Source of the DNA: Eledone cirrhosa
Lineage: Eukaryota
Length of the DNA stretch: 64,000 bases
Assembly (NCBI GenBank): GCA_964016885.1
Contig: OZ024759.1
Span: forward strand, 18,414,001 to 18,478,000
Direction: 5' to 3'
The position numbers and the translations under genes are program-made. The notes under the pieces are model-generated. The model worked only from the letters and a program-made list of their open reading frames with translations, ran no database searches and was not told the DNA's origin. This document shows, one piece after another, positions 21,217-50,231 of the stretch. Position 1 is the stretch's first letter; each line of letters begins with the position of its first letter.

Positions 21217-21249
<33 letters not shown>

Positions 21250-25295: not shown

Positions 25296-25457
25296 GCCAA
25301 AACTACACCTGATGTCCCCCTTCCATACACATGCACACATGCGTATATCATAACTCATGCACTGTTCATTTTCCTGACGTTTGTGCGTTACCCTATGTAC
25401 TATACATACACTTTTGATGAATTGTAGTGCACCTGAGCACTGTACACAATATTTTCA

Positions 25458-25645: not shown

Positions 25646-26199
25646 ACTATTTTAAATGCATTTACATGGTACCCATGTACGAATATTGGAAGTGGTCCAT
25701 AAAAATGCCTATAAATGTTAAAATATAATTTAAAAAAGAGGGAAAGTCCAATATGGTATATTGTTATTAATAATTTAACATTAAAAAATATATATTGTCA
25801 CGAAAAAATCGCGGAAGATATTTACGATTCCGCTAAACTGCGATGGTTTCCACGGACAATTATTAGTTAGGTTCTGAGGAAGATTCCGCGAATGTCGGGG
25901 GTACACTGTATTCATATATCATCTCTCAAAAATGTAAACACGTGCAGCATACAAATATATTGTCTTACACATATATATTCATATAGTGTTTCACAAAAAA
26001 CGTGTGGACACACACATACTCACACTCCCGAAAATGCTCACACATCAACTTATTTAATCATGAAAACAAATACTCCAATATAGACATAAATAAATGTATA
26101 TATACAGATATGTGTGATAACGGACTGGAGTAAAAAAGTAAGCACGAACGTATATGTGTAATATTGAAGAATCTGTGGAGGGGAGTTGAGTCCATTAGG

Positions 26200-26432
26200 G
26201 AAACAAGACCCAAGGTGGAAAATCAGACTCTGTTCAGTCCTGGTGCGCAAGACCTGTGATGTAAAAGCACACCAACGACTGAGACATGTAGGGAAGAGTG
26301 ACATGGGGAATGGAAATAACAGGCGAAGCCATACCGAGTCGTTTGTCCCTTAAATGTTCAGCAAAACGGCGTCCTGTTTGTCCAATGTATAAGGGACCGC
26401 CAAGAGAAGACCGGAGGGCATAGACTACGTGG
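26200..26432 (-). mobile_element. Penelope-like element fragment (GIY-YIG endonuclease)
   Basis: HVVYAL...PLYIGQTGRRFAEH resembles the PLE GIY-YIG signature. Confidence 0.7.
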
Positions 26433-29400
26433 AAGGTGGACGTTAAACGAAGATGATGATTATCATGATATATATATATGTATATATGTGTGTGTGTACA
26501 GGGCCTGTGAGAGGTGGGTCCAGCTGGTACATTGTTCCGGTGCCCAAGAGCTAAGAAAGTCACATGCAACATCCATTTCGAGAATAATCTTTGCCTGCTT
26601 TGGGAGTCTTGTACCACCTTGCTAAATTTCTCTTGGAGGCTCTGTGTATGCATATATGCATGCGAAAATATATATATAAATGTATACTTTCTTTTAAACT
26701 AAAAAAAAAACCCTACAAATAGAAATACCGTTACCTCTTCTAAAAAACTAAACTAAGCCATCTCGACACTATATACATACTTTCTAAGAAATATAACTCA
26801 AATTTCTCTCTATAAACCTCATTCTGCAGATCTTTCTTTATTGAATACATTCTAAACCTTGTCAACAATAACAGCTATTCTAGAGACACAAAAATACGTT
26901 TTACTATCTTCTCTTTTTAGAGACATACATATAAAGCTATACACTTTCTACTAAGAAAAATATATAAACCTTCTTCTTTATACAGGAATATACCTTTCCT
27001 TTTTTCTTCAAACAAAACGAAACCTCTCTATACAGCTACATTTTTATTATCACTGATGCTGTCCAACTAATTTCTATTGCTGAGTGATTTGGAGCAACGT
27101 GAAATAAAGTGTCTTGTTCAAGAACACAACGCCCTCCATAATGTCAGAAAAAATGATTTAAACGTTAGTTTTGTTTAGGGTGTACATGTCCCATAGGATC
27201 TCCTACGGCCAACTAAGCTCTGGTCACCATAAGCGTAGAGGGCGAAAGAAGCAGTTTTAGGCATATACTTTACACAACATCTCCTACGGCCACCTAAAAC
27301 TCTTGTTAATGTCCCATAGTATCTCCCACGCTTGCATGGGTCGTCTTGCTTATATATGTGTGCTAAGAGTGCGAAAGGAACAGATTAAGGACATACTTCT
27401 CGTACAAGCTTCATATACATAATATCAAAGAAGCAGTTTTATAGCGTATCCGTCCTATGGCCAACTAAACGCTGGTCAGTGAGCGAAAGAAGCACTTCAT
27501 TGAAAACGTAATTTTAATTAAGATTTTTCAAATACATCTATATCATATAGATTCGTTTTCGACACTTTCAAAAACACACATTTCATATACATTTCTTTTC
27601 AACACTTACAAAAACACCCGTTTCATATAAAATTTTTGTTTGGCTTTTCAGAAAACACACATTTCATATAGAATTTTTTTCGGCACTTTCACAAACATTC
27701 TTAGTTTCTTTCTTTAGACACTTCATCTATATTCTTAGTTTCTTTCTTAAGAAACTTAATCTACAACAGGGTTTCCCAACCTTTTTTCAGCCAGCGCTCC
27801 CTTTGGAGGAAAACTTTTTTGTCAACGCCCCCCTATCAAATTAAATTTCACATAAGATACTGAATTCATTTTACATCAAATGGGTGTTTTGTTTTTATTT
27901 TTGGTGTTCCACTTTAGCAACACAAGTTACTCATGAATGAATGTGGTGCTAGGAATTCGCTTGGTGTCGCTAAAGTGGAAAAAAATACTTATATGCCGTA
28001 AAGCATATTGTCCGACGCTCTACAGACAATGCCAATACACAGCTGTGAAGGAATTTAATAATAAAACCACTTGGCTATCGTTTACCTTGTTGCGTGTAGG
28101 TCACTTAATCTGCCTTTGTCGTTCTTTCTCGACCAGATCCAGCTGGAAAAACTCTCCGCCTCCTCTGCTATTGTCTTTAGTACTTTGGTCCTGTTCCAGC
28201 CAGTTACTCAGAGATATTTCATGAGATTGTAGGCAGATATTTCCACCAACCCTCTCACTCCAGCCTGTGGGGTGAGAACTTTGACCTGGAAACCTACTTT
28301 GTAAAGAACTTTCTCTCCCCTGTATGTCTGTCCTTCTTGTAATCATAGCTGAAGTATTGATCAGTGTTAACAGGTCGATATCGATTAAATTTTCACCACG
28401 TGAGTTCTCAATCATTAGGAGAGAGTGACATCTTGGGTGTCATCATAACGTCCAATTCACCCATTTCCGGTGATCGGCCACTCCTTGATATGTTTGTGAT
28501 TGAGAGTAAAGTGACTCCCCACTAGACGGGACGCCAGTCCATCACATGGTTAAATCCCCATCTACTGCTGGTGCTCATTTTCAGCTGAGTATAACTGGGA
28601 GAAGGGGAAGACGACTCACCTAGAGGGACTAACCCCAGTGCACAAGCCAGGTAAACATACAGTAACGCACTCGGGTCGATTTAATTGACTTTCCCCTCCC
28701 CCAAAATGGTTGGCCTTGAGCCCAAAGCAGAAACAAGCAGGACCTTTCAACTGTACTAAATACATGACAACCACCCTAGTGTTGGTATCACTTAGTAAAC
28801 TCAGTAAAGGGGTTTTCGTAAAGGCATCCTTCGGGTCAAGAGGACTCTCCTACTGTATAAAACAGGACAACCTCATTATTGCTGGTGTCCTGATAAAAAT
28901 GCACTCAGTAATAGTGCTGTAGTTTAGATGGCGCTGCAGCATGGCCTGGCTGTTTAGATGGTGCTGCAGCATAGCCAGGTTTGTTAGTTAGTCGGTGATT
29001 GCCTTGAATCTCCAAAGTATGTGTAGAAGGGGGTGCGACAGCGTGTTGGCTCTGGGTATCCTTTGGGGAAAAGAACTTAATAAATTTGTTTGATTTATAT
29101 TAAAATCGAATAAAGCGTTTATATCATGTTTCATCTGTGTTTATATATATTCAAAATGTTTTCCTTTCTCATAATATTTCTCAGTATATTAGACCTTATA
29201 CTTCAGTTTTTGGGGCATACAATCAAGATTGCCCCGGGTATCTGTGATAGAGTGGCGTTCTGTCCAGATGAGTTCCTGTATTTTCAGCCGACTAACTGAC
29301 ACGGATAAGTAACGATCTAATGAGCCTCCGGATTTGAGACAGACTTTAATCTTGCAATCGACTGGCGTCCTATCCAGGTCCACAGTGCAGTTATTCTACA

Positions 29401-29574
29401 CACATATGTTTGGTAAGTCCGTAATTGAAGTTACAGGCGGTGTGAACGTATTTTTGCTCATAAAGCTCGCATATCTGATGAGATATTGATACAGAGCCGG
29501 ACTCCGGTCATTATGATTGTACTCTAAGATGATCGATATTGATATTGGAAGTGATATGCAGCAAGACTCTTTTT

Positions 29575-30122
29575 CTGTGATAAAAGAATGGGCCTGCTTT
29601 TTAACGTCCCTGATATACAGTGGAATCTGTCTTTCGATACGATCCACAGTTACATGTAATTAAAAAATGGGTCTGTCTTTTAACGTCCCTGATATACAGT
29701 ATAGTTTTGAAGCTGTCTCTCGAAACGGCCCACTGTCAAATCAAATCTAAGGTTGTGTTTTTCTTTTAACGTCCCTGATATAGAGTATATTTTGGTAGCT
29801 GTTTCTCGATACGAAGAGGTGTCACATCTGATATAAAGTGAGGTCTGTCTGTCCCTCCATACGGCCCTTTGTTACATCTAACATAATGTTGGGTCTGTCT
29901 GTCTCTCCATACGACCGACAATTACATCTAACTAATATAAGCGTGGGCCTGTCTTTTAACGTCCCTGATATACAGTATATTGTGGTAGCTGTCATACCAT
30001 ATAGCCCACAGTTAAATCTAAGGATGGGTCTGTCTTTTAACGCCCTCATATACAGTATATTGTGGTAGCTGCAACCCCACATGGCAGCTGTTACATTTAA
30101 GGATTGGTCCGTCTTTTAACGT
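29575..30122 (-). repeat. Diverged monomers of the 81-bp satellite
   Basis: gggtctgtcttttaacgtccctgatatacagtatattgtggtagctgtcataccatatagcccacag is the reverse complement of the 45850 unit; more monomers at 31935-32550, 36015-36270 and 42720-42965. Confidence 0.85.
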
Positions 30123-30230
30123 TAAGTTAATTCTAGTGCTCATTTCTTTTTTTGAGGTGTTGATCCATGAACCAAGATACCTAAAACCTTCAAATGTAAC
30201 GGATTTTGTATTGAGCAGACACTATATTAA

Positions 30231-30362
30231 CCCTTTAGCATTTACATTGCTCTATATATACTATTGTATTTTCATGGTTAAATTTTTTTCCTCCCATAGT
30301 ATGGAATCTATGAGAACAATACCTTAACATCAGTATGAGCAGCCGGTTTAAATGCTAAAGGA
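30231..30362. mobile_element. piggyBac-like MITE (short copy)
   Basis: TTAA-CCCTTTAGCATTTA ... TAAATGCTAAAGGA-TTAA. Confidence 0.7.
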
Positions 30363-31669
30363 TTAACATATATGTTACCATCTTAGTAAGTATATTTACT
30401 TACATATTAATTGTTCTGTATATATGTTCGCAATACTAGTAATTTCGAATTTAATATATATATAGAGTGAGGTAACACTCGGAATATATCGTGTTATCTC
30501 GCTTTCTTTCCGTTTCTATATTAAAAAAAAAAAAAAAAATGTTACCTCTAAGTATGACTAATTTACTTAGCAGAATTGCGGCGATGCGCGTAGCGGTTCC
30601 GACTTCGTCGTCTACCTATGTATGGCGTGACCATACTATGTGTCTGAAGTTCCAATCGTTACAAGGTCTTCGTGGCTTTTGCAGGGAGAAGGGGTAGAGG
30701 ACTCACCTGGAGGGGCTAACCCCAGTGCACAAGCCAGGTAAACATACAGTAATGCATTGGGGTCGATTTAATTGACTTTCCCTTGAGCCAAAGTAAAAAC
30801 AAGGAGGACCCTCCAACTGTACCAAATACATGACAACCACCCTGGTGTTGGTATCACTTAGTAAACTCAGTAAAGTGGTTTTCGTAAGGGCATCCCTCCA
30901 AATAAAGGGTCAGGAGGACACTCCTGCTGTATCAAAGATATGACAACCTCATTAGTGCTGGTGTCCTGATAAAAATGCATTCAGTAATAGCGCCTGGCTG
31001 TTTAGTCGCTTTCGTATGATATACTATTTACACCTACCTAGTTGTTCTTTTGTCTACGTATTCTTAATGAAATACACATCCACTTGTTTCAATATATAGC
31101 GAATATAACAACATTTAACATATTTTTTATTAATAAATATGTATCTAGTATAGTTTAAAAATTGTTTCTACTTCTTCCTGGGGTAGATCCTTTGTCTTTA
31201 TTAAATCCTTCTGCCGACTATTTCTCCCCATCACTGTGTGGTTGTCTTCCTCTCCCTCTCCAGATCTAACTCATTCCCAATTAGCAATCGAACGTGGTGG
31301 TTTCGATTATTCGAAGTTGCCTACCTCTTGCGATCTTTCCGAGGTACACACAATAAGTCCAGCTGTTCACCATCTATGTTTTAAGCCCTTTTTCTCCCAT
31401 TTGATTTTACCGTGCGAAACTTCAGTATTTCTTCGCATAGTGGTTAATGTCATAAGTTCGATTCCTTGATCGTGTTGTGTTCTTGAGCAAAACACTTCAT
31501 TTCACATGGCTCCAGTATACTTAGCTGAAAATGAGATAGACTGGCGTTCTGTCCAGGTTCCTGTATTTTCAGCCGACTAACTGACTCGGATAAGCACCGG
31601 TCTAATGAGCCTCCGGGTTTGAGACAGACCTTGCAATCGACTGGCGTGTCATTCCAATGTTTGTGAGCA

Positions 31670-31870
31670 TTCTCCATACTGATTGAGCCGTACTGCTCAC
31701 CTTTGCCAGTCTTGCTGATTTCCCTGTCAATCTTGGCATCCGATGTGAAGATGCATCCCAGGTAGCTGATATGATGGTCTGTTTTCAGTTCAGTCTCGCC
31801 AATGGGGAGGGTGGTACTCTTCCTGAGGTGCAGGCTGGTGGAATACCTCCATCTTCTTTAAGCTTACTTA
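31670..31870 (-). mobile_element. RTE LINE fragment
   Basis: Translates IGETELK...SYLGCIFTSDAKIDREI, the post-RT YLG motif of RTE elements. Confidence 0.6.
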
Positions 31871-33363
31871 CAGTCCAGAGAGCTGGGCAGCCTATGCGAA
31901 ACTGGGAGTGATACGCATCAAGATTCTTTCTCTGTGATAACAGAATGGGCCTGTCTTTTAACGTCCCTGATATACAGTAGTAGCTGTCTACCCCCCCCCC
32001 CCACACACACACACAGACACACAGACACACACGGCAGCTGTTATATCAAAGGATGGGTCTGTCTTTTAACTGATATACAGTATATTGTGGAAGCTGTCCC
32101 TCCATACGGCCTACAGTTACATCTAAGGATGGGCCTGTCTTTTGACGTCCCTTATATAGAGTATATTATGGCAACAGTACATCCATGCGGCCAATAGTTA
32201 CATCTAACGTTGTTTGTCCTTCCATGTTGCTTCTAATATAAGGCTGGGTATGTTTTTTAACGTCCCTTACATAGAGTTTATTGTGGTAGCTGTCCCCCAC
32301 TCGGCAGCTGTTACATCTAAGGTTGTGTTTGTCTTTTAACGTCCCTGATATAGAGTATATTTAGGTAGCTGACACTCGATACGGCCCACTGTCAAATCTA
32401 ATATAAGGTTGGGCCTGTCTTTTAACAGTATATTGTGGTAGCCGTCCCTCCATATGGAGAGGTGTCACATCTGATATAAGGTGAGGTCTGCTGTCTCTCC
32501 ATACGGCCCACATTTGCAGCTTATAAAAGGTTGATCTGTCTTTTAACATCCCAAGAACTGGGGTCATATGTCAATCGCACACCGTCACTCTTAAACCTGG
32601 AATCCATCAAGGTATGTATTAGTCACATTTGTATCGATTTTTTAAAATTATTCGTTGATAAAATGATATATGTAAACGGCATAAATGGAAGTAATCCAGG
32701 GGTGAATATATTTTTCATTTCAAGATTGTTAATGCGTTGCTGGTCATGTGGTGATATATGTGTATTGTTACGGGGTGCACTTATGGTTGTCGATCGAATA
32801 CCGATGGTGACTGTCTTATTCTTCAATTGTGGATCATTTGGTGACTGGTAACTGTACAGGCAGTACATATTTCAGTGGAAGTGTTGTATGTCACACCTCA
32901 GTTTCCTTCCCTCTCGGCTTCTAAGACTTTCTCCGTGCCCAACGCTTGGTTAGAGGGCCAAAGGCTGTGCATAATAAGGTCGCCAAAAAAATGGTTAAAA
33001 GAGACATGTCTAAGCTGTATAATCTTCTATGGCTATCGCTTGACTGTAAACATGTTTAAACTCTCTCGCTGGAGGGTAAACAAAGCGGTTTAAAGATGTC
33101 TAACTTCCTTCTCCATCGTAGATCTTTCAGTCATCAAAGGGTCAGTATCGAACTTCGATAAACCACCACAATTAAACTCCCTAAACACTCCGTTGGCAGA
33201 CATCGAATACCCCATCTTCACAGCACCACCAATGCGTTAATAATTGTCTTATGAAAAAAATATTTAAATCCAAAATCACTTCCCTTTGTTCCGTTTGCAT
33301 ATATTAATTTATTTTTCAACAAAATCTTTCAAAAGTACCCATAAGTACCACTATTTAACTCAC

Positions 33364-33456
33364 TAGAATTGTGGCCTTCGCGGTGGCGTGCGACTGCTAA
33401 CTGGACCGGCGCATCGATGCAAGGCCCGACCCTGACCACCGTGAAGAACTTTTTTT
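33364..33456 (+). ncRNA. Candidate Pol III structured RNA, module Y (short form)
   Basis: Terminal stem cttcgcggtgg/ccaccgtgaag followed by T7. Confidence 0.3.
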
Positions 33457-34937
33457 CGAAATTTCTCTTAATATATTTTTGAAGTTTCTAGATTCTTAAA
33501 ACCCTTGAAGGTTATTAACATTCTTGGAAGACAGTTAGATTCGAACCTTTCTAACTTAGAATCTAACCCTTGATACTTCTTACCTAGATTCGAACCTTTG
33601 ATACTTTCTTTACATACTTCAAGGTTCTTATTACATTCTTACCCTTGATACTTCTTACATTTTTGACTTACTTAGATTCGAACCTTTGATACTTCAAGGT
33701 TCGTTCTTGGAAGACAGTTTGATTCGAACCTTCGATGCTTTCTTTACATACTTAAAGGTTCTTGATACTTGGAACCTTGATGGGTACTCCATTCTTGGAC
33801 GACTGTTGGATTCGAACCCTTAATGACACTTTTGGACGAATGTTACATTGGTAATACTATCTATACATTTTTTTTTTTTTTTGTCAAAATAAACGGAACA
33901 CAATTCGTATGTAATATGTAAACTTTATTCATTTTTGTCAAATAAACTGAACACGATTCGTATAAGATGTTCGACATTTTTTACGGCAACACAGCATATG
34001 ACCTCGAAGGCTGGACATCTGTAAAAGAAAATAAAAAGAACATTAAATTTCATAAAATTCTTCAAATTTTGTTCTTTTATTATATATACATTTAAAAAGA
34101 GGAAACCTTTTCCTACATCAAAGTTACGTAGATTAAAACCTAGGGTGTAATATTCACCCTGACCTAAGACGACAGATCTCAAAAGGTTATTCATAATAAC
34201 CAGAATTTACAATACACGAGGATATCATGAAGGGAACTAGAAATAATATTGTTGGATGGAAACTAAGAGTGTTGTAAATGAAGTATCAAAGAATGTAGCA
34301 AGAAGTATCTCATCCAACTGTCTTCCAAGAATGTAAAGAAAGTATCTAAGGTTCTAATCCAAGGTTTAAGGGGACACGTGTGCGAGAAATCAAGATTCAT
34401 TGGGTGAATATTTCTTCGAAAGCATGTATACAGTGTCGAGATGGCTTAATTTAGTTTCTTAGAAGAGGTAACACTATTTGTGTGTGTATTTTGTTTTAAA
34501 TTTCAAAGAAAGCCACAGAAAATAAAATATGAACACAATAACCAAAGTGTGTATCTAATGAAATGTATGTTTTCTGAAGAGTAGAAAAAAAATCTATATG
34601 AAACTAGTGATTTTGAAATGTCGAGAAAAATTCTATATGAAACGTATGTTTTCTGAAAAGTCGAAAAAGGAAATCTACATTTAATTGGTGTTTTGTGAAA
34701 GGTGTATATCTAATAGAATGTATGTATATAGAAAACAATATCCAAAATGTGAGCGTTATTGACATAAAGTGTATATATTAGTCCTAGTATAGAGCAAAGC
34801 AAACATTACATACCTCTCTACATGAAAGTAATATCCAAAATGGTTCTCTTCCAAAGAACCGGAAGTTACTTGAAAAAAGTCACTTCAAAAAAAGAAGAGT
34901 TTAAAAAAGGGGAGATAATTCTAATAAAATTTTGAGC

Positions 34938-35118
34938 AAAAATCGATTGTTCGCGAGGCCCGGGACGCAGGTCAGACAAGTAGCCAGCCTGCGAAATAGT
35001 CCCAGCTGCATAAACCACGAAGACCTCGTAACGATTCGAACTTCAGACACATAGAATGGTCACGCCATACATAGGTAGACGACAAAGTTAGAACCGCTAC
35101 CCGCAAAGCTGCAATTCT
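34938..35118 (-). ncRNA. Candidate Pol III RNA, module X
   Basis: A-box-like GTAGCGG, B box GTTCGAATC (35033-35041) and T5 end on the minus strand. Confidence 0.3.
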
Positions 35119-37024
35119 TATAAGTAAAATTAGTATACTTATAGGTAAAATTTTAGTATTTTGTACATTTATGCAGAACAATTATTATGGAGATAAATAT
35201 ATGTATTTCTCTCTATAAACCTCATTCTGTAGATCTTTCCTTAGAGACATACATATAAAACTATATACTCTCAACTAAGAAAAATATATAAACCTTCTTC
35301 TCTATACCTTTCCTTTTTTCTTCTAATAAACCTCTATACACAGCTACATTTTATTATCTTCTCTATTTCTTTCACACGTGTCCTCTTCTATGTAGAGAGA
35401 AACCTTTGTGAGAATCGAACTCACGATTGTAAAGTCCGACAACTTTACATAAATACTTTGCGCATTGATGTCCAATTATATCGGCGCATGCGTACTTTAG
35501 TGAAAATTAAATGGCCGCATGAAGAACTACATGTTTTACAACGTGAATTAAAAAAACGTTAAAAACTTGGATTTTACTAATTTTACGGAGGTAAACTAAA
35601 GCTTTATTTTATGTTGATCAGTTTTATTGAAACATTTTCTGTTTATTTCCCTCCATAATGTCAGAAATAATTATTTAAACATTAGTTTTGTTTAGCCACA
35701 TCTTACATTCTAATGTAATACAACACCCCCTCATACATATTTCTTGCTCATACGAAATAGTGTATTTTGTTAATTATTATGTAAGCTGGTAAATAATATA
35801 TTTCTATTTCCCTTCATCATATCCTCGTATTTTGTAATCAGAGGTTAACTGTTGATTCGTGTTAACTAGATCGATATCGCTTTAACTTTTAACCTACAAT
35901 CATTTATATTCTTAGTTTCTTTCGTTAGAAACTTTATTTATATTTTTAGTTTCTTATTTTCCCACCAACAATATTATGTAGACAATAGTTTTGTTTAAGC
36001 TACTGCCACATTTCTACTGTTACATCTAAGGTTGTGTTTGTCTTTTAACGTCCCTGATATTAGGTATATTAGTATATTTAGGTAGCTGCCCCTCGATACG
36101 GCCCACTGTCAAATCTAATATAAGGTTGGGCCTGTCTTTTAACAGTATATTGTGATAGCGATTCCTCCATACTGAGAGGTGTCACATCTGATATAAGGTG
36201 AGGTCTGCTGTCCCTCCATACGGCCCACATTTGCAGCTTATAAAAGGTTGACCTGTCTTTTAACATCCCAAGAACATGTGTCAATCGCACACCCTTAAAC
36301 CTGGAATCTATCAAGGTACGTATTAGTCACATCGATTTTTTTAATTATTCGTTGATAAAATGATATATGTAAACGGCATAAATGGAAGTAATCCAGGTGT
36401 GAATATATTTTTCATTTCAAAATTGTTAATGCGTTGCTGGTCATGTGGTGATATATGTGTATTGTTACGGGTGCACTTATGGTTGTCGATCGAAAACCGA
36501 TGGTGACTGTCTTGTTCTTCAATTGTGGATCATTTGGTGATTGTACATATGTCAGTCTATACCTCCTCCCCCTCGAAAGCTCAGTGCCCTGTCTGGCTTC
36601 TAAAACTTTCGCTGTGGCCAACGCTTGGTTAGAGGGCCAAAGGCATGTACATAATGTCGACAAAAAAAAGAAAACGGTTAAAAGAGACATGTCTAAGCTG
36701 TATAATCTTCTATGAGTATCGCTTGACTGTAAACATGTTTAAACCCTCTCGCGGGAGGGTAAACAAAGCGGTTTAAAGACATTCTAACTTCCTTCTCCAT
36801 CGTAGACATCGAACTTAGATAAACCACCACAATTAAACTCCCTAAACACTCCGTTGGCAGACATCGAAAACCCCATCTTCATAGCACCACCAATGCGTTA
36901 ATAATTGTCTTATGAAAAAAATATTTAAATCCAAAATTACTTCCCTTTGTTCCGTTTGCATATATTAATTTTTTTTTCAACAAAATCTTTCAAAAGTACG
37001 TATAAGTACCACTATCTAACTCAG

Positions 37025-37188
37025 TAGAATTGCGGCCTTCGCGGTGGCGTGCGAACTGCGTCTCGGACTACCAGTCTCCCTGGCTGGCGTTCTATTCGTG
37101 GTGGCGTGCGACTGCATCGGCCTGGGACTATTCTGGGCCGGCACATAGATGCAAGGCCCGTCCCTGACCACCGTGAAGCCTTTTTTTT
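37025..37188 (+). ncRNA. Candidate Pol III structured RNA, module Y (long form)
   Basis: Upstream TATAAG at 37001, 11-bp terminal stem (37037-37047 with 37168-37178), T8 at 37181-37188. Confidence 0.35.
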
Positions 37189-37365
37189 GAAATTTTTTTA
37201 ATATGCAAATTAGATAAAAAAAAAAAGAAGAAAAAAATCTTTGACATAGTAAATATATATATATATATTTACTATGTCGACATAGTATATATATATATAT
37301 GTCGACATATATATATATATATAGTGAGACTTGTCGAAGATTTAATCTAATATGCTAATTTCGAA

Positions 37366-37630
37366 AATCTAATATGCTAATTTGGAAATTATATTAGAAG
37401 AAATTTCTTTTAATATAATTTCTAATTTGCATATCTAATATGCTAATTTGGAAATTATATTAGAAGAAATTTATTTTAATACAATTTCTAATTTGCATAT
37501 CTAATATGCTAATTTGGAAATTATATTAGAAGAAATTTCTTTTAATACAATTTCTAATTTGCATATCTAATATGGAAATTATATTAGAAGAAATTTCTTT
37601 TAATATAATTTCTAATTTGCATATTAGAAA
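37366..37630. repeat. Tandem ~66-bp imperfect palindromes (~4 copies)
   Basis: atatgctaatttggaaattatattagaagaaatttcttttaatataatttctaatttgcatat is nearly self-complementary about GAAATTTC. Confidence 0.85.
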
Positions 37631-37699
37631 TTTTTTCTAATATGATATTTTTGAAGTTTCTAGATTCTTAAAACCCTTGAAGGTTATCAACACTCTTTG

Positions 37700-38350
37700 A
37701 AGACAGTTAGATTCGAACCTTTTTAACCAAACTTGGATTCTTAGATTCTAACCCTTGATACTTCTTACTACATTCTTGACTGAGATTCGAACCTTTGATA
37801 CTTTCTTTACATGGTTCAAGGTTCTTATTTCATTCTAACCCTTGATATTTCTTACTACATTCTTGACTTAGATTCGAACCTTTGATACTTTCTTTACATA
37901 GTTCAAAGTTCTTATTACATTCTAACCCTTGATACTTCTTACTACATTCTTGACTGAGATTCGAACCTTTGATACTTTCTTTACATGGTTCAAATTTCAT
38001 TCTAACCCTTGATACTTCTTACTACATTCTTGACTTAGATTCGAACCTTTGATACTTTCTTTACATGGTTCAAGGTTCTTATTACATTCTTACCCTTGAT
38101 ACTTCTTACCACATTTTTGACTTACTTAGATTCGAACCTTTGATACTTTCTTTACATACTTCAAGGTTCTTATTACATTCTTACCCTTGATACTTCTTAC
38201 CACATTTTTGACTTACTTAAATTCGAACCTTTGATACTTCAAGGTTCATTCTTGGAAGACAGTTTGATTCGAACCTTCGATGCTTTCTTTACATACTTAA
38301 AGGTTCTTGATGGTGACTCCATTCTTGGACGACTGTTGGATTCGAACCCT
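37700..38350. repeat. ~88-bp tandem repeat carrying GGTTCGAATC (minus strand) in each unit
   Basis: About 9 (g)attcgaacc motifs; a shorter version with 5 motifs lies at 33535-33820. Confidence 0.8.
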
Positions 38351-39496
38351 TAATGACACTTTTGGACGACTGTTACATTGGTAATACTGTCTATACATTT
38401 TTTTTTTTTGTCAAAATAAACTGAACACAATTCGTATATAATATGTAAACTTTATTCATTTTTGTCAAATAAACTGAACACGATTCGTATAAGATGTTCG
38501 ACATTTTTTACGGCAACACAGCATATGACCTCGAAGGCTGGACATCTGTAAAAGGAAATAAAAAGAACATTAAACTTTATAAAATTCTTCCAATTTTGTT
38601 CTTTTATTATATATACATTTAAAAAGAGGAAACCTTTTCCTACATCAAAGTTACGTAGATTAAAACCTAGGGTATAATATTCACCCTGACCTAAGACGAC
38701 AGATCTCAAAAGGTTATTAGTAATAACCAGAATTTACAATAGACGAAGGGAACTAGAAATAATATTGTTGGATGGAAACTAAGAGTGTTGAAAAAAGAAA
38801 CGAAAATTGTAAATGAAGTTTCTAACGAAAGAAACTAAGAGTATCAAAGAATGTAGCAAGAAGTATCTCATCCAACTGTCTTCCAAGAATGTAAAGAAAG
38901 TATCTAAGGTTCTAATCCAAGGTTTAAGGGGACACGTGTGCGAGAAATCAAGATTCATTGGGTGAATATTTCTTCGAAAGCATGTATACAGTGTCGAGAT
39001 GGCTTAATTTAGTTTCTTAGAAGAGGTAACACTATTTGTGTGTGTATTTTGTTTTAAATTTCAAAGAAAGCCACAGAAAATAAAATATGAACACAATAAC
39101 CAAAGTGTGTATCTAATGAAATGTATGTTTTCTGAAGAGTAGAAAAAAAATCTATATGAAACTAGTGATTTTGAAATGTCGAGAAAAATTCTATATGAAA
39201 CGTATGTTTTCTGAAAAGTCGAAAAAGGAAATCTACATGAAATTGGTGTTTTGTGAAAGGTGTATATCTAATAGAATGTATGTATATAGAAAACAATATC
39301 CAAAATGTGAGCGTTATTGACATGAAGTGTATATATTAGTCCTAGTATAGAGCAAAGCAAACATTACATACCTCTCTACATGAAAGTAATATCCAAAATG
39401 GTTCTCTTCCAAAGAACCGGAAGTTACTTGAAAAAAAGTCACTTCAAAAAAAGAAGAGTTTAAAAAAGGGGAAATAATTCTAATAAAATTTTAAGC

Positions 39497-39678
39497 AAAA
39501 ATCGATTGTTCGCGAGGTCCGGGACAAGTAGCCAGCCTGCGAGATAGTCCCAGCTGCATAAGCCACGAAGACCTCATAGCGATTCGAACTTCAGACACAT
39601 AGAATGGTCACGCCATACATAAGTAGACGACAAAGTCGGAACCGCTACGCGCATCACCATGCAAAGCCGCAATTCTAC
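39497..39678 (-). ncRNA. Candidate Pol III RNA, module X
   Basis: Upstream TATAAGTA, start TAGAATTGCGGC shared with module Y, A-box-like GCGTAGCGG, B box GTTCGAATC (39581-39589), T5 end. Confidence 0.35.
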
Positions 39679-39769
39679 TAAGTAGAATTAGTATACTTAT
39701 AGGTAAAATTTTATAAAGTTTAACTTTCTTTTTATTGACAACGTCTGTATATATATATATTTATTGACA

Positions 39770-41060
39770 ACGTCTTTTATTTCTTTTACAGATGTCCAAT
39801 CATCGAGGTCATATGCTGTGTTGTTTGCCGTAACAAGTAGGAATGTCGTAGTTTTTGTTAATAAAGAAAGTTTACATCTTATATACGAATTGTGTTCAGT
39901 TTATTTTGCAAAAAATGAATAAAGAAATCAAGAGTCTACAAGAAACTGAGTAAGACGCGCTATAAAGAACGTAAGTGTATATGAAGTTTCTAAATAAAGA
40001 AACTAAGAGGTAGATAAAGTTTCTTGAAAGAAACTAAGAATGATGAAGTTACTAAATCAAGAAACTAAGAGGTAGATAAAGTTTCTTGAAAGAAACTGAG
40101 AATGATGAAGTTACTAAATAAAGAAACTAAGAATGTTTTTGAAATTATCGAAAAAAAAAAATCTATGTAATGAGTCCCCCTTTTTTTTTTTTTTTTTTTT
40201 ATTAAAGGGAGGTAACTCTGTAATATTTTTGAGAGAACACCTTCGTCACCGTCGTTACCACCGTCGGCACCTTCGTAACCGTCGTCACCATTACCGCCGC
40301 CACCTGGTGGCGGAGGTAAAGATACCGACGACGACGAAGTTGCACCGTCGTCTTCGTCGGTACCTTTGCCGCCGCCACCTGGTGGCGGAGGTGAAGACAC
40401 CGACGAAGACGACGGTGCAACTTCGTCGTCGTCGGTACCTTTGCCGCCGCCACCTGGTGGCGGAGGTGAAGACACCGACGAAGACGACGGTGCAACTTCG
40501 TCGTCGTCGGTATCTTTACCTCCGCCACCAGGTGGCGGCGGTAATGGTGACGACGGTTACGAAGGTGCCGACGGTGGTAACGACGGTGACGAAGGTGTTC
40601 TCTCAAAAATATTACAGAGTTACCTCCCTTTAATAAAAAAAAAATAAAAAAAGGGGGTACTCATTACATAGATTTTTTTTTTTCGATAATTTCAAAAACA
40701 TTCTTAGTTTCTTTATTTAGAAACTTTATCATTCTTAGTTTCTTTCAAGAAACTTTATCTACCTCTTAGTTTCTTGATTTAGTAACTTCATCATTCTTAG
40801 TTTCTTTCAAGAAACTTTATCTACCTCTTAGTTTCTCTATTTAGAAACTTCATATACACTTACGTTCTTTATAGCGCGTCTTACTCAGTTTCTTGTAGAC
40901 TCTTGATTTCTTTATTCATTTTTTGCAAAATAAACTGAACACAATTCGTATATAAGATGTAAACTTTCTTTATTAACAAAAACTACGACATTCCTACTTG
41001 TTACGGCAAACAACACAGCATATGACCTCGATGATTGGACATCTGTAAAAGAAATAAAAG
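39770..41060. repeat. Near-perfect long palindrome with GC-rich multi-hairpin centre
   Basis: Arms ~39770-40361 and 40474-41060 are reverse complements apart from homopolymer lengths and a few substitutions. Confidence 0.92.
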
Positions 41061-44000
41061 TCATTTACAGACGTTGTCAATAAAAAGAATGTTAAACTTT
41101 ATAAAATTCATCCAATTTTGTCTTTTATTATAAAAATCATTTAAATAGAGGAAACTAAGAATCTATATGAAGTTTCTTAAAGAAAGGAAATAAGAAGGTA
41201 GATGAAGTGTATAAAGAAAGAAACTAGGAATGTACATAAAATGCATAAAGAAGATTGTAAACGGTTACTTGTTACGTAAATTAAAAGTTAAAGCGGTATC
41301 GATCTGGTTAATAATATCGATCTGATTACGATGTCTAAAAAAAAAAACAACTAAATTTCTTTCTTTAGAAACTTCATCTACATTCTTAGTTGTTTTCAAT
41401 GACGAAAAAAGAAACTAAGAAAGTAAATGAAGTGTTGAAAGGGAACAAAGAAAGTAAATGAAGTGTTGAAAGGGAACAAAGAAAGTAAATAAAGTTTCGT
41501 GAGGAGAAACTAAGAATGTAAAGGGTTAAAGTGATATCGATCTAGTTAACACTGACCGACAGTTAATCTTTGAATACGATCATGATATCTAAATTAATCA
41601 ACAGTTAATCTTTGATTACGATCATGATATCTAAAAAAAAAAAATGGGTACAAAACTTAAGTTTTATGGCCAAAACGTGACGGGTGTAATATTCATCCTG
41701 ACCAAAGACAACAGATCTCAAAAGATTCTGGTTAATATTAATAACCAGAATATATAGCAACCAACATCATGTGTGACAGGAGCAAGTCCTCCAAAACAAA
41801 TTTACAACAAAACACGAGGATATCATGAAGGGAATTAGAAATATATTATTTAAATAATAAAGAAAATAAGCTAAATTCTATTTCATATGACCTAGAAATG
41901 TGGCAGTAGCTTAAACAAAACTATCGTCTACATAATATTGTTGGTGGGAAAATAAGAAACTGAAAATGTAAATAAAGTTTCTAACGAAAGAAACTAAGAA
42001 TATAAATGATTGTAGGTTAAAAGTTAAAGCGATATCGATCTAGTTAACACGGATCAACAGTTCACCTCTTTTTTCATAAGACAATTATTAACGCATTGGT
42101 GGTGCTATGAAGATGGGGTTTTCGATGTCTGCCAACGGAGTGTTTAGGGAGTTTAATTGTGGTGGTTTATCTAAGTTCGATGTCTACGATGGAGAAGGAA
42201 GTTAGACATGTCTTTAAACCGCTTTGTTTACCCTCCCGCGAGAGGGTTTAAACATGTTTACAGTCAAGCGATACTCATAGAAGATTATACAGCTTAGACA
42301 TGTCTCTTTTAACCGTTTTCTTTTTTTTGTCGACATTATGTACATGCCTTTGGCCCTCTAACCAAGCGTTGGCCACAGCGAAAGTCTTAGAAGCCAGACA
42401 GGGCACTGAGCTTTCGAGGGGGAGGAGGTATAGACTGACATATGCACAATCACCAAATGATCCACAATTGAAGAACAAGACAGTCACCATCGGTTTTCGA
42501 TTGACAACCATAAGTGCACCCCGTAACAATACACATATATCACCACATGACCAGCAACGCATTAACAATTTTGAAATGAAAAATATATTCACACCTGGAT
42601 TACTTCCATTTATGCCGTTTACATATATCATTTTATCAACGAATAATTAAAAAAATCGATGTTACTAATACGTACCTTGATGGATTCCAGGTTTAAGGGT
42701 GTGCGATTGACACATGTTCTTGGGATGTTAAAAGACAGGTCAACCTTTTATAAGCTGCAAATGTGGGCCGTATGGAGGGACAGCAGACCTCACCTTATAT
42801 CAGATGTGACACCTCTCAGTATGGAGGGATCGCTATCACAATATACTGTTAAAAGACAAGCCCAACCTTATATTAGATTTGACAGTGGGCCGTATCGAGG
42901 GGCAGCTACCTAAATATACTCAATATCAGGTACGTTAAAAGACAAACACAACCTTAGATGTAACAGTAGAAATGTGGCAGTAGCTTAAACAAAACTATTG
43001 TCTACATAATATTGTTGGTGGGAAAATAAGAAACTAAAAATGTAAATAAAGTTTCTAACGAAAGAAACTAAGAATATAAATGATTGTAGGTTAAAAGTTA
43101 AAGCGATATCGATGTAGTTATAGAAATATATTAACCTCTGATTACAAAATACGAGGATATCATGAAGGGAAATAGAAATATATTATTTACCAGCTTACAT
43201 AATAATTAACAAAATACACTATTTCGTATGAGCAAGAAATATGTATGAGGGGGGTGTTGTATTACATTAGAATGTAAGATGTGGCTAAACAAAACTAATG
43301 TTTAAATAATTATTTCTGACATTATGGAGGGAAATAAACAGAAAATGTTTCAATAAAACTGATCAACATAAAATAAAGCTTTAGTTTACCTCCGTAAAAT
43401 TAGTAAAATCCAAGTTTTTAACGTTTTTTTAATTCACGTTGTAAAACATGTAGTTCTTCATGCGGCCATTTAATTTTCACTAAAGTACGCATGCGCCGAA
43501 ATAATTGGACATCGATGCGCAAAGTATTTATGTAAAGTTGTCGGACTTTACAATCGTGAGTTCGATTCTCACAAAGGTTTCTCTCTACACAGAAGAGGAC
43601 ACGTGTGAAAGATATAGAGAAGATAATAAAATGTAGCTGTGTATAGAGGTTTATTAGAAGAAAAAAGGAAAGGTATAGAGAAGAAGGTTTATATATTTTT
43701 CTTAGTTGAGAGTATATAGTTTTATATGTATGTCTCTAAAGAGAGATCTACAGAGTGAGGTTTATAGAGAGAAATTTGAGTTAGAAAGTATGTATATAGT
43801 GTCGAGATGGTTTAGTTTAGTTTCTTAGAAGGGCTAACACTATTTGTATGTGTATTATGTTTTAATTTCAAAGAAAGCATGTTGAGTGAGTGACGATGTG
43901 CCAGAAAGCCACATGAACACAAGATCCAAAGTGTGAGAGTTGTTGACATAAAGTATGTATCTAATAACATGTATGTGTATAGGGCAAAGAAAACATTACA

Positions 44001-45021
44001 TACCTCTATAGTTTGGATTTGTGACAGGTAAAAGTACTACGGAGGCCATCTACCTTTTGGGGCAACTGGTAAACCTCTACTTGATTTCTTTATTCATTTT
44101 TGTCAAAATAAACTGAACATGATTTGTATATAAAATGTAACCTTTTTTATTTACAGAAACTTCGCCGTTCCCACTTGTTACGACAAATAACACAGCATAT
44201 GACCTTGAAGGCTGGACATCTGTAAAAGGAAATGAATGTCATTTACATACGTTATCAATAAAAAGAATATTAAACTGTATTAAATTCTTTCTATTTCGTC
44301 TTTTATTATATATAGATTTAAATAGAGGAAACAAGAAAACCCTTCCTACATCGAAGGAGGTAACTAAACTAAGAATGTAAATGAAGTGTTGAAAACGAAC
44401 AAAGAAAGTAAATGAAGTTTCGTAAGAAGAATCTAAATGGTTCTATGCTACCTAGGTTAAAATGATATCGATCTAGTTAATACTGACCAACAGTTAATCT
44501 TTGATTATGATGATGATGATGATGATATCTAAAAAAAAAAAATTTCGTTCAAAACTAGACAGGTATAATATTGACTATGATCAAAGATGACAGATCCAAA
44601 AGATTCTGGTTAATATTAAGATGTGCCAGAAAGCCACATAAAAAGCCCCTTCACATAAACACAATATCCAAAATGCATGTGAGGTTTATTGACATAAAAT
44701 GTATGTGTATGGTTGTTCGCGAGGTCCGGGAACGCAGGCCAGCAAGTAGCCATCCTGCAAACAGTCCCAGCTGCATAAGCCACGAAGACCTCGTAACGAT
44801 TCGAACTTCAGACACATAGAATGGTCACGCCATGCATAAGTAGACGACGAAGTCCGAACCGCTGCTTTTAGGTAAAACTTTATTCATTAAAATATATATA
44901 TATATAGAAATGGAGAGGAAAGTAACACGTCTCAAAATAGATTTCGTGTGTTATCTCACATTCCGTTTCTATATTTAAATTAATTTAGAATCTACTAGTA
45001 TTTTGTACATATATGCAGAAC

Positions 45022-45213
45022 AAGGCGGTGGATTGGCAGTATCGATAGAGGGTCGGACGCCATGCTTTGCAGCACAGTTAGTCCCTTTACGGACTGAGTT
45101 CAAATCCCGCCGAGGTGAACTTTGCCTTTCATCCTTACGGAGGTCGATAAAATAAAGTACCAGTAATACACTGGAGTAATTGCTGGCCTTGTGCCAAATG
45201 TAGAAACAATTAT
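45022..45213 (+). mobile_element. Full-length SINE family A
   Basis: aaggcggtggattggcagtatcg head, B box gagttcaaatcc, conserved core and tail. Confidence 0.8.
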
Positions 45214-45699
45214 TATGGAGATAAATATATATACACATATGTGTGGGTGTATATACGTTAATAATTGTCTTACGTATAAGAAAATTATTAACGCATTGGT
45301 GGTGTTGTGAAGATGGGGTTGTTGTACATATATACAGAACAATTGTTATGGAGATAAATATATGTGTGGGTGTATATGTATATATGCCGAGGAGAGAGAA
45401 GAAGAGGGAGCACGTCAGCTCTGATAAAGAAGATCAGAAGTGTGGAGAGAGCGGTTGACAGGTCTAGGTGTAAGGAGAGCTGGATGATCATAGGGAGGAA
45501 GAGAAGGGGTTCGAGTCAGATCCAGGGAACAGGACCCGAGGATAGGAAGAGGAAATGGCTGGACCATTTTAGGACCCTCCGCAGTTGTATGATCAACTGG
45601 ATATGGAGACACGACCCTTCACCAGAGAGGAGCTTCCGAGACCCCAAAAGAAGATCAAAGAGGGCTAGGCTCATGGAGTGGCATCAGAAGTGTGATTTT

Positions 45700-45818
45700 G
45701 GTTAGAGCATTGTGCTTGCAATCGAAAGGTTGTGAGTTGGATTCTCGGACCGGGTGATGTCTTGTGTCCTTGAGCAAGACACTTTATTTCACGTTGCTCT
45801 AGTTTACTCAGCTGTAGA
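45700..45818 (+). mobile_element. SINE family B head abutting the 81-bp satellite
   Basis: Reverse complement of 1780-1905. Confidence 0.7.
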
Positions 45819-45849
45819 AGGGGGAGGGGGCAGCTACGACATATATACT

Positions 45850-48800
45850 ATATATTAAAAGACAGACCCATCCTCAGATGTAACTCTGGGCTATATGGTA
45901 TGACAGCTACCACAATATACTGTATATAAAGGATGTTAAAAGACAGACCCTTCCTCAGATGTAACTGTGGGCTATATGGTATGACAGCTACCACAATATA
46001 CTGTATATAAAGTATATTAAAAGACAGACCCACTCTCAGATGTAACTGTGGGCTATATGGTATGACAGCTACCACAATATACTGTATATAAAGGATGTTA
46101 AAAGACAGACCCATCCTCAGATGTAACTGTGGGCTATATGGTATGACAGCTACCACAATATACTGTATATAAAGGATGTTAAAAGACAGACCTATCCTCA
46201 GATGTAACTGTGGGCTATATGGTATGACAGCTACCACAATATACTGTATATAAAGGATGTTAAAAGACAGACCCATCCTCAGATGTAACTGTGGGCTATA
46301 TGGTATGACAGCAACCACAATATACTGTATATAAAGGATGTTAAAAGACAGACCCATCCTCAGATGTAACTGTGGGCTATATGGTATGACAGCTACCACA
46401 ATATACTGTATATAAAGGATGTTAAAAGACAGACCTATCCTCAGATGTAACTGTGGGCTATATGGTATGACAGCTACCACAATATACTGTATATAAAGGA
46501 TGTTAAAAGACAGACCCACCCTCAGATGTAACTGTGGGCTATATGGTATGACAGCTACCACAGATGTAACTATGGGCTATATGGTATGACAGCTACCACA
46601 ATATACTGTATATAAAGGATGTTAAAAGACAGACCCACCCTCAGATGTAACTGTGGGCTATATGGTATGACAGCTACCACAATATACTGTATATAAAGGA
46701 TGTTAAAAGACAGACCCACCCTCAGATGTAACTGTGGGCTATATGGTATGACAGCAACCACAATATACTGTATATAAAGAATGTTAAAAGACAGATCCAT
46801 CCTCAGATGTAACTGTGGGCTATATGGTATGACAGCTACCACAATATACTGTATATAAAGGATGTTAAAAGACAGACCCACCCTCAGATGTAACTGTGGG
46901 CTATATGGTATGACAGCTACCACAGATGTAACTGTGGGCTATATGGTATGACAGCTACCACAATATACTGTATATAAAGGATGTTAAAAGACAGACCCAT
47001 CCTCAGATGTAACTGTGGGCTATATGGTATGACAGCTACCACAGATGTAACTGTGGGCTATATGGTATGACAGCTACCACAATATACTGTATATAAAGGA
47101 TGTTAAAAGACAGACCCTTCCTCAGATGTAACTGTGGGCTATATGGTATGACAGCAACCACAATATACTGTATATAAAGTATGTTAAAAGACAGACCCAG
47201 CCTCAGATGTAACTGTGGGCTATATGGTATGACAGCTACCACAATATACTGTATATAAAGGACGTTAAAAGACAGACCCACCCTCAGATGTAACTGTGGG
47301 CTATATGGTATGACAGCTACCACAATATACTGTATATAAAGGATGTTAAAAGACAGACCCATCCTCAGATGTAACTGTGGGCTATATGGTATGACAGCTA
47401 CCACAGATGTAACTGTGGGCTATATGGTATGACAGCTACCACAATATACTGTATATAAAGGATGTTAAAAGACAGACCCTTCCTCAGATGTAACTGTGGG
47501 CTATATGGTATGACAGCTACCACAATATACTGTATATAAAGGATGTTAAAGGACAGACCCATCCTCAGATGTAACTGTGGGCTATATGGTATGACAGCTA
47601 CCACAATATACTGTATATAAAGGATGTTAAAAGACAGACCCATCCTCAGATGTAACTGTGGGCTATATGGTATGACAGCAACCACAATATACTGTATATA
47701 AAGTATGTTAAAAGACAGACCCAGCCTCAGATGTAACTGTGGGCTATATGGTATGACAGCTACCACAATATACTGTATATAAAGGATGTTAAAAGACAGA
47801 CCCACCCTCAGATGTAACTGTGGGCTATATGGTATGACAGCTACCACAGATGTAACTGTGGGCTATATGGTATGACAGCTACCACAATATACTGTATATA
47901 AAGGATGTTAAAAGACAGACCCATCCTCAGATGTAACTGTGGGCTATATGGTATGACAGCTACCACAATATACTGTATATAAAGGATGTTAAAAGACAGA
48001 CCCATACTCAGATGTAACTGTGGGCTATATGGTATGACAGCTACCACAATATACTGTATATAAAGGATGTTAAAAGACAGACCCATCCTCAGATGTAACT
48101 GTGGGCTATATGGTATGACAGCAACCACAATATACTGTATATAAAGTATGTTAAAAGACAGACCCATCCTCAGATGTAACTGTGGGCTATATGGTATGAC
48201 AGCTACCACAATATACTGTATATAAAGGATGTTAAAAGACAGACCCATCCTCAGATGTAACTGTGGGCTATATGGTATGACAGCAACCACAATATACTGT
48301 ATATAAAGTATGTTAAAAGACAGACCCAGCCTCAGATGTAACTGTGGGCTATATGGTATGACAGCTACCACAATATACTGTATATAAAGGATGTTAAAAG
48401 ACAGACCCACCCTCAGATGTAACTGTGGGCTATATGGTATGACAGCTACCACAGATGTAACTGTGAGCTATATGGTATGACAGCTACCACAATATACTGT
48501 ATATAAAGGATGTTAAAAGACAGACCCATCCTCAGATGTAACTGTGGGCTATATGGTATGACAGCTACCACAGATGTAACTGTGGGCTATATGGTATGAC
48601 AGCTACCACAATATACTGTATATAAAGGATGTTAAAAGACAGACCCATACTCAGATGTAACTGGGGGCTATATGGTATGACAGCTACCACAATATACTGT
48701 ATATAAAGGATGTTAAAAGACAGACCCATACTCAGATGTAACTGTAGGCTATATGGTATGACAGCTACCACAATATACTGTATATAAAGGATGTTAAAAG

Positions 48801-48858
48801 ACAGACCCAGCCTCAGATGTAACTGTGGGCTATATGGTATGACAGATACCACAATATA
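45850..48858. repeat. 81-bp satellite (~34 units) with seven interspersed 38-bp half units
   Basis: Unit gttaaaagacagacccatcctcagatgtaactgtgggctatatggtatgacagctaccacaatatactgtatataaaggat. Confidence 0.95.
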
Positions 48859-49984: not shown

Positions 49985-50018
<34 letters not shown>

Positions 50019-50021
50019 GTA

Positions 50022-50168: not shown

Positions 50169-50231
<63 letters not shown>

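Follow-up and report, generated by a model that had tools for sequence, protein, structure and literature searches.

We analyzed a 64,000-nucleotide stretch of the Eledone cirrhosa genome (assembly GCA_964016885.1, contig OZ024759.1, positions 18,414,001 to 18,478,000 of the forward strand), here called the window, whose AT-rich animal DNA is rich in microsatellites, satellites, short interspersed elements (SINEs), and long interspersed element (LINE) remnants. Its SINE sequences are seemingly octopus-like. Positions 26,684-45,370 of the window hold a block of nested repeats, which is probably a locally rearranged cluster of an unclassified, noncoding, low-copy repeat family. We consider it rather likely that this cluster is made up of five or more partial copies of a repeat of ~2 to 4 kb, which is modular and apparently noncoding. 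The repeat is likely present elsewhere in the genome at low to moderate copy number, and its unit is most likely a nonautonomous transposon derivative with internal sub-repeats. The cluster likely owes its present arrangement to several rounds of template switching in situ, in replication or repair, and the divergence between paralogous segments of the block, which ranges from ~1% to ~30%, points to several rounds of growth rather than to one concatemer insertion.

The block falls into two parts. In the dense core (32,040-45,370), 95% of the bases have a second copy within the block, and 2% match window sequence outside it, not counting an adjoining 81-bp satellite. The left part (26,684-32,039) consists of older minus-strand copies (75 to 94% identity) and common repeats, some of very high copy number, and its bases have a second in-block copy in 59% of cases at 26,684-27,767 and in 46% at 27,768-32,039. 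The common repeats here are a LINE reverse transcriptase (RT) remnant, a TTAA-bounded miniature inverted-repeat transposable element (MITE), SINE pieces, and an end that is presumably hAT-like. An initial annotation had described the whole as one 18-kb block of nested repeats; the anatomy is real, with a dense 13-kb core, but the block is not one element, its left 5 kb being mixed. Resolution of the modules into unrelated known transposable element families, which the initial annotation had named as refuting it, was seen in part: much of the left 5 kb is common repeats, but the 13-kb core does not resolve in this way.

Anatomy of the repeat block

A loose module order runs through the block: F, 31-bp repeats, a gatatc motif, G, R/S, (Q, P, O), I, J, K, L, M, a hairpin, and N. 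Module F occurs four times on the plus strand and once mirrored, and older fold-backs are found within the unit itself (E versus H, 72 to 75% identity; part of B versus the B end plus C, 71 to 72%). The features are as follows, with letters denoting modules.

26,684-27,765 (minus strand): older, deleted module copy (I, O, Q, 39-bp repeats J, and 31- to 34-bp repeats), 75 to 94% identical to core modules, with variant letters in up to 19 contigs
27,064-27,130: SINE piece inside this older copy
27,180-27,520: segment W, unique within the window, inside the same older copy
27,767-30,366 (no strand): interposed sequence with common repeats, sequencing bin depth up to 2e5; its end at 27,767 is what we take, from its motif, to be hAT-like, and a search for a partner end found none
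28,597-28,917: SINE-like tail
29,546-30,122: degenerate 81-bp units
30,227-30,366: TTAA-bounded inverted-repeat MITE
30,383-30,684 (minus strand): inverted M-hairpin-N end module, mirror of 44,713-45,365 (83 to 92% identity)
31,717-31,900 (minus strand): frameshifted C-terminal LINE RT remnant, 77% and 58% identical to P0004 (tblastn, E = 5e-17) and, judging from its motifs, presumably RTE-like
31,903-35,204 (plus strand): unit copy 1, made of degenerate 81-bp units (A), B, C, GC-rich D, B-box-like array E, F, G, H to L with 39-bp repeats, GC-rich M, and N
35,205-36,920 (plus strand): left arm of the 1.7-kb inverted repeat (O, P, Q, R, S, A, B), beginning at the N|O junction
36,017-39,713 (plus strand): unit copy 2, direct duplicate of copy 1 with local expansions and 0.8 to 7% substitutions by module
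37,015-37,200 (plus strand): GC-rich module D, predicted to form a closed stem, after which comes a T run (fold z of -2.5)
37,241-37,644: AT-rich hairpin array, with (TA)-centered palindromes and 4.4 copies of a 66-bp two-hairpin unit, not present in copy 1
37,719-38,348 (minus strand): expanded B-box-like array of 87- to 91-bp units with nine GGTTCGAAT(C/T) sites; its counterpart in unit copy 1 has five such sites at 33,547-33,818
39,707-41,108: 1.4-kb palindrome, with arms made of F, 31/62-bp repeats, and a GC-rich tail
40,215-40,620: palindrome center, an array of two alternating imperfect hairpins
40,294, 40,369, and 40,444 (forward) and 40,519 (reversed): hairpin P
40,325 (reversed) and 40,400 and 40,475 (forward): hairpin U
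40,902-42,069 (plus strand): diverged unit copy (F, 31- to 34-bp repeats, gatatcgatctagttaac motif, G, R, S), the highest-copy part of the core (bin depth 1,140 to 1,261)
42,069-43,775 (minus strand): right arm of the 1.7-kb inverted repeat, beginning at the S|B junction
43,776-45,365 (plus strand): diverged unit copy (I, K, F, motif, G, K, M, hairpin, N)
45,024-45,220: SINE inserted in N of this right-end copy
45,256-45,293: fold-back with a 16-bp stem, between duplicated N segments
45,276-45,320: 45-bp copy of the B end, between the same duplicated segments
45,831-48,859 (minus strand): homogenized 81-bp satellite adjoining the block, ~70% like the units of module A

The short motifs reported earlier as recurring in the block proved specific to it. 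All 13 window matches of gaaactaagaa lie within the block (0.01 expected), as do all four of gatatcgatctagttaac, three of them exact (0.00 expected). The reported B-box arrays are sound if taken as B-box-like: 15 of the 17 window matches of the B-box pattern are in the block, and 14 of these are GGTTCGAAT(C/T) sites on the minus strand, in two arrays. The claim of hairpin arrays holds in number, with 32 hairpins in the core versus 2 to 8 in eight Markov resamples, but 21 of the 32 are confined to two local arrays, and the TA-rich left flank is denser per kb. The near loss of (TA)n tracts was likewise seen (4.8 bases per kb inside the block versus 87 and 50 in the flanks), although it is not unique to the block; the tracts are also absent from the 4- and 6-kb stretches at 45,001-49,000 and 55,800-62,000.

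Large repeats and proposed fold-back growth of the core

Self-BLAST and global alignments confirmed both the ~3-kb direct duplication and the 1.7-kb inverted repeat. The direct duplication (32,308-35,155 and 36,017-39,713 overall) has a first part (32,308-33,397 and 36,017-37,059) with 4.5% substitutions and a second part (33,579-35,155 and 38,121-39,713) with 2.2% over 33,700-35,155; by module, the substitutions amount to 0.8% in H to K, 2.7% in F, 4.1% in A, 4.5% in B, and 6.9% in M. The inverted repeat (35,205-36,920 and 43,775-42,069) has 22 substitutions among 1,703 aligned bases, i.e., 1.3%, or 98.7% identity by substitutions. Each of its copies has one native and one new junction, the native ones joining O to I on the right, as again at 26,684-26,850, and B to C on the left, as again in unit copy 1.

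The central palindrome of the initial annotation is real, but it is not at the center of the block (~35,850), its own center being at ~40,410. Its arms are ~99% identical, with five substitutions in 570 aligned arm bases and none in the 147 bases of the GC-rich inner arms, and they also differ by a 19-bp indel. The center reads as tail', P, U', P, U, P, U, P', tail, in which the hairpins P and U are imperfect and 23 and 36 bases long, respectively. The flip point is the 36-bp hairpin U, present twice forward and once reversed, so that near-identical inverted arms are centered on a short inverted repeat. At 39,707 the left arm joins M/N through 7 bp of microhomology, and the five junctions inspected by eye share ~7, 1, 2 to 3, 1, and 1 bp, which means that the rejoining junction has the longest microhomology and the four others have 1 to 3 bp.

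Template switching at short inverted repeats with microhomology gives inverted duplications, according to the accessible part of PMC10766186. The twice-forward, once-reversed arrangement of hairpin U is as described there for such switching, and the 45-bp templated insert and the 16-bp fold-back at the right end fit it as well. The palindrome-driven amplification proposed earlier is accordingly supported by the junction microhomology, the hairpin flip, and the ~1% inverted duplicates. As far as that text goes, the block resembles the products of origin-dependent inverted-repeat amplification, microhomology-mediated break-induced replication, and fork stalling and template switching (ODIRA, MMBIR, and FoSTeS, respectively) in its near-identical inverted arms around a short imperfect spacer, its second junction formed by microhomology, and its adjacent direct and inverted copies. 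It differs in its scale of 0.7 to 4 kb, in its substrate, a repeat cluster, and in its recurrence over long times.

The distances are graded, with 0.9 to 1.3% for the palindrome and the inverted repeat, 0.8 to 7% for the direct duplication, and BLAST identities of 69 to 90% for the older paralogs. In the order that these distances suggest, older rounds (70 to 90% identity) would have laid down head-to-tail and inverted copies, a later tandem duplication would have produced unit copies 1 and 2, and the latest rounds (~1%) would have produced the 1.7-kb inverted repeat and the palindrome. For the palindrome, a strand ending in U may have annealed to the complementary half of a U and been copied back for ~650 bases, and the fold-back copy may then have rejoined the M/N boundary through the seven shared bases. 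Slippage could have formed the local 31-, 39-, 66-, 75-, 81-, and 87-bp arrays, and the older left part likely received its common SINEs, LINEs, and MITEs by insertion. In octopus, a distance of 0.09 from the consensus corresponds to 25 million years in the accessible part of PMC13282606; if this calibration applies, the latest rounds would date back 1 to 2 million years and the oldest paralogy tens of millions of years. We also tried, by hand, an inversion in one step with a staggered break and rejected it, since it did not restore both junctions.

Coding potential, RNA-like modules, and known mobile elements

We scanned 128 stop-to-stop frames of at least 48 aa across 26,500-45,900 against Pfam. 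None of the 127 in-block or flanking frames passed the cutoff, with four weak subthreshold matches, and the sole frame above it is a translation of the satellite outside the block. Reading through stops gave no match at E ≤ 0.1 for 24 core frames and none at E of 0.1 for nine frames of the left part. Across the Pfam, read-through, and homologue searches, the core yielded no viral, Polinton, Helitron, transposase, or RT coding remnant. The earlier statement that the block has no transposase or RT of its own is thus correct for the core, but the left part holds the LINE RT remnant at 31,717-31,900. The idea of a remnant of a large DNA element or virus is unsupported, in that we found no coding remnant, terminal repeat, or target-site duplication, the latter two having been looked for at the block ends. 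A rearranged concatemer of a hairpin-ended or rolling-circle element likewise lacks positive evidence, given the absence of coding remnants and the graded divergence.

Several candidate frames were examined and set aside. The longest in-block stop-to-stop frame, of 171 aa, lies within the GC array. A Pro/Gly/Asp-rich frame of this array (40,279-40,647) looks alike from either strand, owing to the palindromic structure of the array; its apparent synonymous changes stem from the flipped palindrome, and none of 436 candidates was a homologue. The open reading frames (ORFs) of module B had no homologue among 128 candidates, and in the Atlas their best score was 0.86, with low recognition and no match. 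A peptide of module M had three phmmer matches (E = 5e-5 to 7e-4), all to repetitive bacterial Ig-like secretion-tail proteins and summed over several stretches; we attribute them to chance because tblastn back to the window gave E ≥ 0.15. Motif scans gave 1, 0, 0, and 0 matches in viral contigs and 0 and 0 in metagenome contigs, but these scans need exact matches and are weak tests, insensitive to diverged viruses. The lone viral match (L001) shares 17 to 19 bp only and was dismissed as chance. Just left of the block, a short GIY-YIG endonuclease remnant was noted at 26,170-26,458 (minus strand; match within 26,237-26,458, Pfam E = 0.031, below cutoff), which from its motifs we take to be of the Penelope/Neptune type.

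Insertions of nonautonomous Penelope-like elements (PLEs), in which one strand would carry partial tandems truncated at the 5' side and the opposite strand an inverted copy, with the M-hairpin-N ends facing outward, are an unlikely origin of the block. According to the accessible part of PMC8557442, PLEs show a preference for microsatellites and form partial tandems next to which an inverted copy lies, and Naiads, which are present in Octopus, are without hammerheads. The block shares with the elements described there its tandem partial copies, an inverted copy, and a microsatellite-rich genome, as well as outward shared ends: its M-hairpin-N ends at 30,383 and 45,365 face outward, the right one fading into TA-like sequence, and the weak, below-cutoff GIY-YIG remnant lies just to its left. 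However, the core has neither RT nor GIY-YIG, no module matches the flanking remnant, and there is no canonical hammerhead, the pattern matches being only in 39-bp repeats and none being found by Rfam; the copies are 1 to 30% rather than ~0% apart and of unequal age.

The same end modules, inverted, ~15 kb apart, and 83 to 92% identical, could instead bound a gutted ~15-kb element with terminal inverted repeats (TIRs), either Polinton/Maverick-like or foldback. We regard this as distinctly unlikely. M(-N) occurs twice internally, and modules lie beyond the supposed ends (26,684-27,765 and 52,370-52,470). A TIR of (AG)n or (AGT)n with a 6-bp target-site duplication is absent from all candidate ends, and the longest end-to-end match for 26,684/45,365 is 8 bp. 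The protein-primed DNA polymerase B (pPolB), integrase, ATPase, protease, and capsid proteins of Polintons, Mavericks, and adintoviruses were not found in the block ORFs by Pfam or in the 24 read-through frames. Foldback transposons (FB, Galileo, Tetris, and Phantom) have long arms in which arrays of short sub-repeats run in opposite directions, and they are prone to rearrangement. The block resembles them in that its sub-repeat arrays are opposed around F/G (E versus H, 72 to 75%), but these arrays are without defined termini, and matched termini, a transposase, and a 7- to 9-bp target-site duplication were not found, the last at the candidate ends examined.

A further candidate is that a hairpin-ended DNA virus left the modules behind as concatemer junctions, the modules being its noncoding termini or its origins of replication. 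An alternation of imperfect hairpins is seen in two arrays, one of them GC-rich and with both flip orientations; this is in line with the proposal, as are the iterated motifs in both orientations, the CpG observed/expected ratio (o/e) of 0.98 in the core, and module D, which could fold like a small polymerase III (Pol III) RNA (z of -2.5). On the other hand, the CpG o/e is 1.01 at 49 to 58 kb, outside the block; any fold-back yields flip/flop forms like the two orientations of hairpins P and U; and the graded divergence speaks against a single integration. Viral coding remnants are lacking, the viral contig scans being empty apart from the chance match and the metagenome scans empty throughout. 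No parvovirus or densovirus NS1/Rep or VP remnant was found, the GC-array frame having no homologue, and the dense long ORFs and core genes of a nimavirus or other large double-stranded DNA virus were not found either. Altogether, Polintons/Mavericks, adintoviruses, densoviruses, and nimaviruses are like the block in size range, inverted end modules, hairpins, and iterated motifs, but the block shows no defining gene, terminal (AG)n/(AGT)n, or target-site duplication. We judge the viral origin quite improbable. The broader proposal that the modules are noncoding ends belonging to a mobile element or DNA virus that is hairpin-terminated and undescribed, with the hairpin arrays, motifs, and RNA-like modules as working replication signals, fold-back amplification, and an autonomous partner elsewhere, is improbable.

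Rolling-circle transposition could also have piled up nonautonomous Helitron or Helentron (HINE-type) elements with central tandem repeats. In the accessible parts of PMC4067079 and PMC7492417, HINEs are without coding sequence, contain central tandem repeats, and seed mollusc satellites, and the block likewise shows no coding, short hairpins, and internal tandem repeats with a satellite counterpart, the adjoining 3-kb satellite being ~70% like the degenerate 81-bp units of module A. In two copies, a hairpin is followed ~20 bases on by CTAG, but what follows CTAG is the same module each time rather than a variable target. A strict scan of the whole window found no end with a GC-rich hairpin plus CTRR-T, nor the 5' TC, 3' GC-rich hairpin plus CTRR, and A|T target of a Helitron (HLE1); by eye, no 5' end with a subterminal inverted repeat (subTIR), inverted repeat, or microsatellite was recognized, nor were the 11- to 15-bp subTIR pair, 3' palindrome, and unduplicated TT target of a Helentron. 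Compared with the HINE/DINE-1-like Helentrons as described in those parts, the block is without a recognized subTIR pair, microsatellite box, TT target, or fixed ends, and its unit, besides being longer, includes inverted copies and sub-repeats of several kinds. This origin is very unlikely.

The Pol III-like modules of the initial annotation did not hold up, being only GC-rich segments of 150 to 200 nt with no tRNA, no Rfam match, and no compensatory change. ARAGORN found no tRNA in the block, no Rfam family reached its gathering score (the E-value matches being generic hairpin miRNA models below threshold), and Rfam gave nothing relevant for D and M up to E of 10. A likeness of D and M to 7SL and 5S RNA was dropped, as Rfam did not support it. 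Compared with shuffled sequences, D folds somewhat better (z of -2.5) and M not clearly so (z of -1.6); among the four copies of M, 0 of 45 pairs had a compensatory change, the copies being too alike for a strong test. We found no tRNA-, 5S-, or 7SL-derived head with A and B boxes of the kind expected for a Pol III small-RNA gene, a SINE, or a TRIMp3 element; the block differs in this from TRIMp3 elements, whose promoters derive from small RNAs according to the accessible part of PMC10886601. None of the listed sequencing runs carrying window words was an RNA run.

Module P (43,540-43,575 and 35,405-35,440) has a tRNA-like T-arm, which by eye resembles the head of a SINE at 45,699-45,819, and its T-arm region matched an Rfam tmRNA fragment at E of 0.04. 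Rfam detected no ribozyme in the core, which also has no canonical hammerhead; two in-block hammerhead pattern matches sit in the 39-bp repeats, and convincing forms occur only outside the block. One such hammerhead-like motif (CTGATGA...GAAAC) lies in a 138-bp palindrome beside (TA)n at 20,434-20,571 (region 20,434-20,642), which looks like an inverted Penelope-type pseudo-long terminal repeat junction, and a related copy lies at 52,597 (region 52,559-52,733).

Copy number, assembly, and neighboring sequences

Three sequencing runs of one sample contain 44 to 48% of the sampled words. Two of these runs, which are deep and may come from the assembly's own sample, and two restriction site-associated DNA (RAD) runs of other samples were aligned at 85% likeness. 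Contigs identical to the window have a depth of 8.3 to 9.2, the single-locus level, whereas the 19 core bins sum to 40 to 1,261 and the common-repeat bins to 1e4 to 1e6. Among the 40 of 828 variant rows listed, variant letters have 5 to 19 distinct carrier contigs each in W, J, K, F, O, R, N, and the motif region, and a variant at 44,452 has a depth of 1,449 to 1,777. These values suggest roughly 10 to 100 further module copies in the genome, depending on the module, although summed depth is not a copy number. The 15 joints listed of 2,154 are all SINE-related.

The sequencing data fit a genuine inverted repeat, and the feature is real. A contig of the inverted repeat (42,199-42,479) has a depth of 31 to 38, ~4 times the single-locus level, as two copies on both haplotypes would give, and an exact contig (26,504-26,774) bridges the left boundary. 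The RAD runs of the other samples place reads on the core, with 122 and 196 starts at 43,515 and 28 and 33 at 35,490, in module P. An assembly artifact, through fold-back reads or false duplication, is extremely unlikely: no contig among the pieces listed spans the palindrome and the deep runs may be the assembly's own sample, but the palindrome arms differ by substitutions and an indel, and the contig evidence and the RAD reads also argue against it.

Several points weigh against reading the block as a noncoding repeat cluster rearranged by template switching. Four of the five junctions share only 1 to 3 letters, which is also expected from end joining, and undoing one inversion does not bring back the native adjacencies at the two junctions together, which leaves more than one possible order of events. 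Viral genes that are old, frameshifted, or of unknown kinds can escape Pfam and word-based searches, and the read-through covered the core and only parts of 26,684-32,039. The figure of 10 to 100 copies is rough for the reason given above, and SINE reads dominate the joint and loose-end tables, masking family ends, a partner, and the genomic distribution.

We found no description of this repeat element in the literature searched, a scope that left out most subscription papers and the repeat databases; unclassified repeat families remain a listed class in the curated octopus annotation, as given in the accessible part of PMC13282606. As best explained, the block is a clear natural record of recurrent fold-back and tandem copying at one locus. 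It marks an unclassified repeat family that deserves curation and offers a test case for assemblers, and it would gain greater importance only if the 10 to 100 other copies pointed the way to an autonomous partner that has viral genes or an unusual enzyme of replication.

A 75% copy of module O and its neighbor lies 7 kb to the right (52,370-52,470), and near it (51,830-51,890) recurs a 60-bp segment found left of the block (25,750-25,808). Within the left part, broken frames at 28,100-28,340 (minus strand) resemble the C terminus of a Hero/R2-group LINE, judging from a motif, with no Pfam match. Farther out, a duplicated Tc1/mariner-like DDE remnant is present at 21,171-23,073 (21,600-22,178; Pfam DDE_3, E = 0.01, below cutoff), and a 428-aa, Ser/Asp-rich open frame at 3,330-4,616 (plus strand), in a CpG-depleted region (3 to 19 kb, o/e of 0.24), is probably a large host exon. 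A 99-bp satellite with 20.8 copies at 98% and a 700-aa open frame occupies 57,856-59,917 (plus strand); its repeat presumably resembles a LINE C-terminal motif, and the satellite was probably born from a LINE fragment. Further young satellites, with units of 48, 22, ~209, and 67 bp, were found at 17,703-18,785, 24,165-25,299, 49,975-50,839, and 60,726-62,016, respectively, indicating that local array expansion is common in the region.

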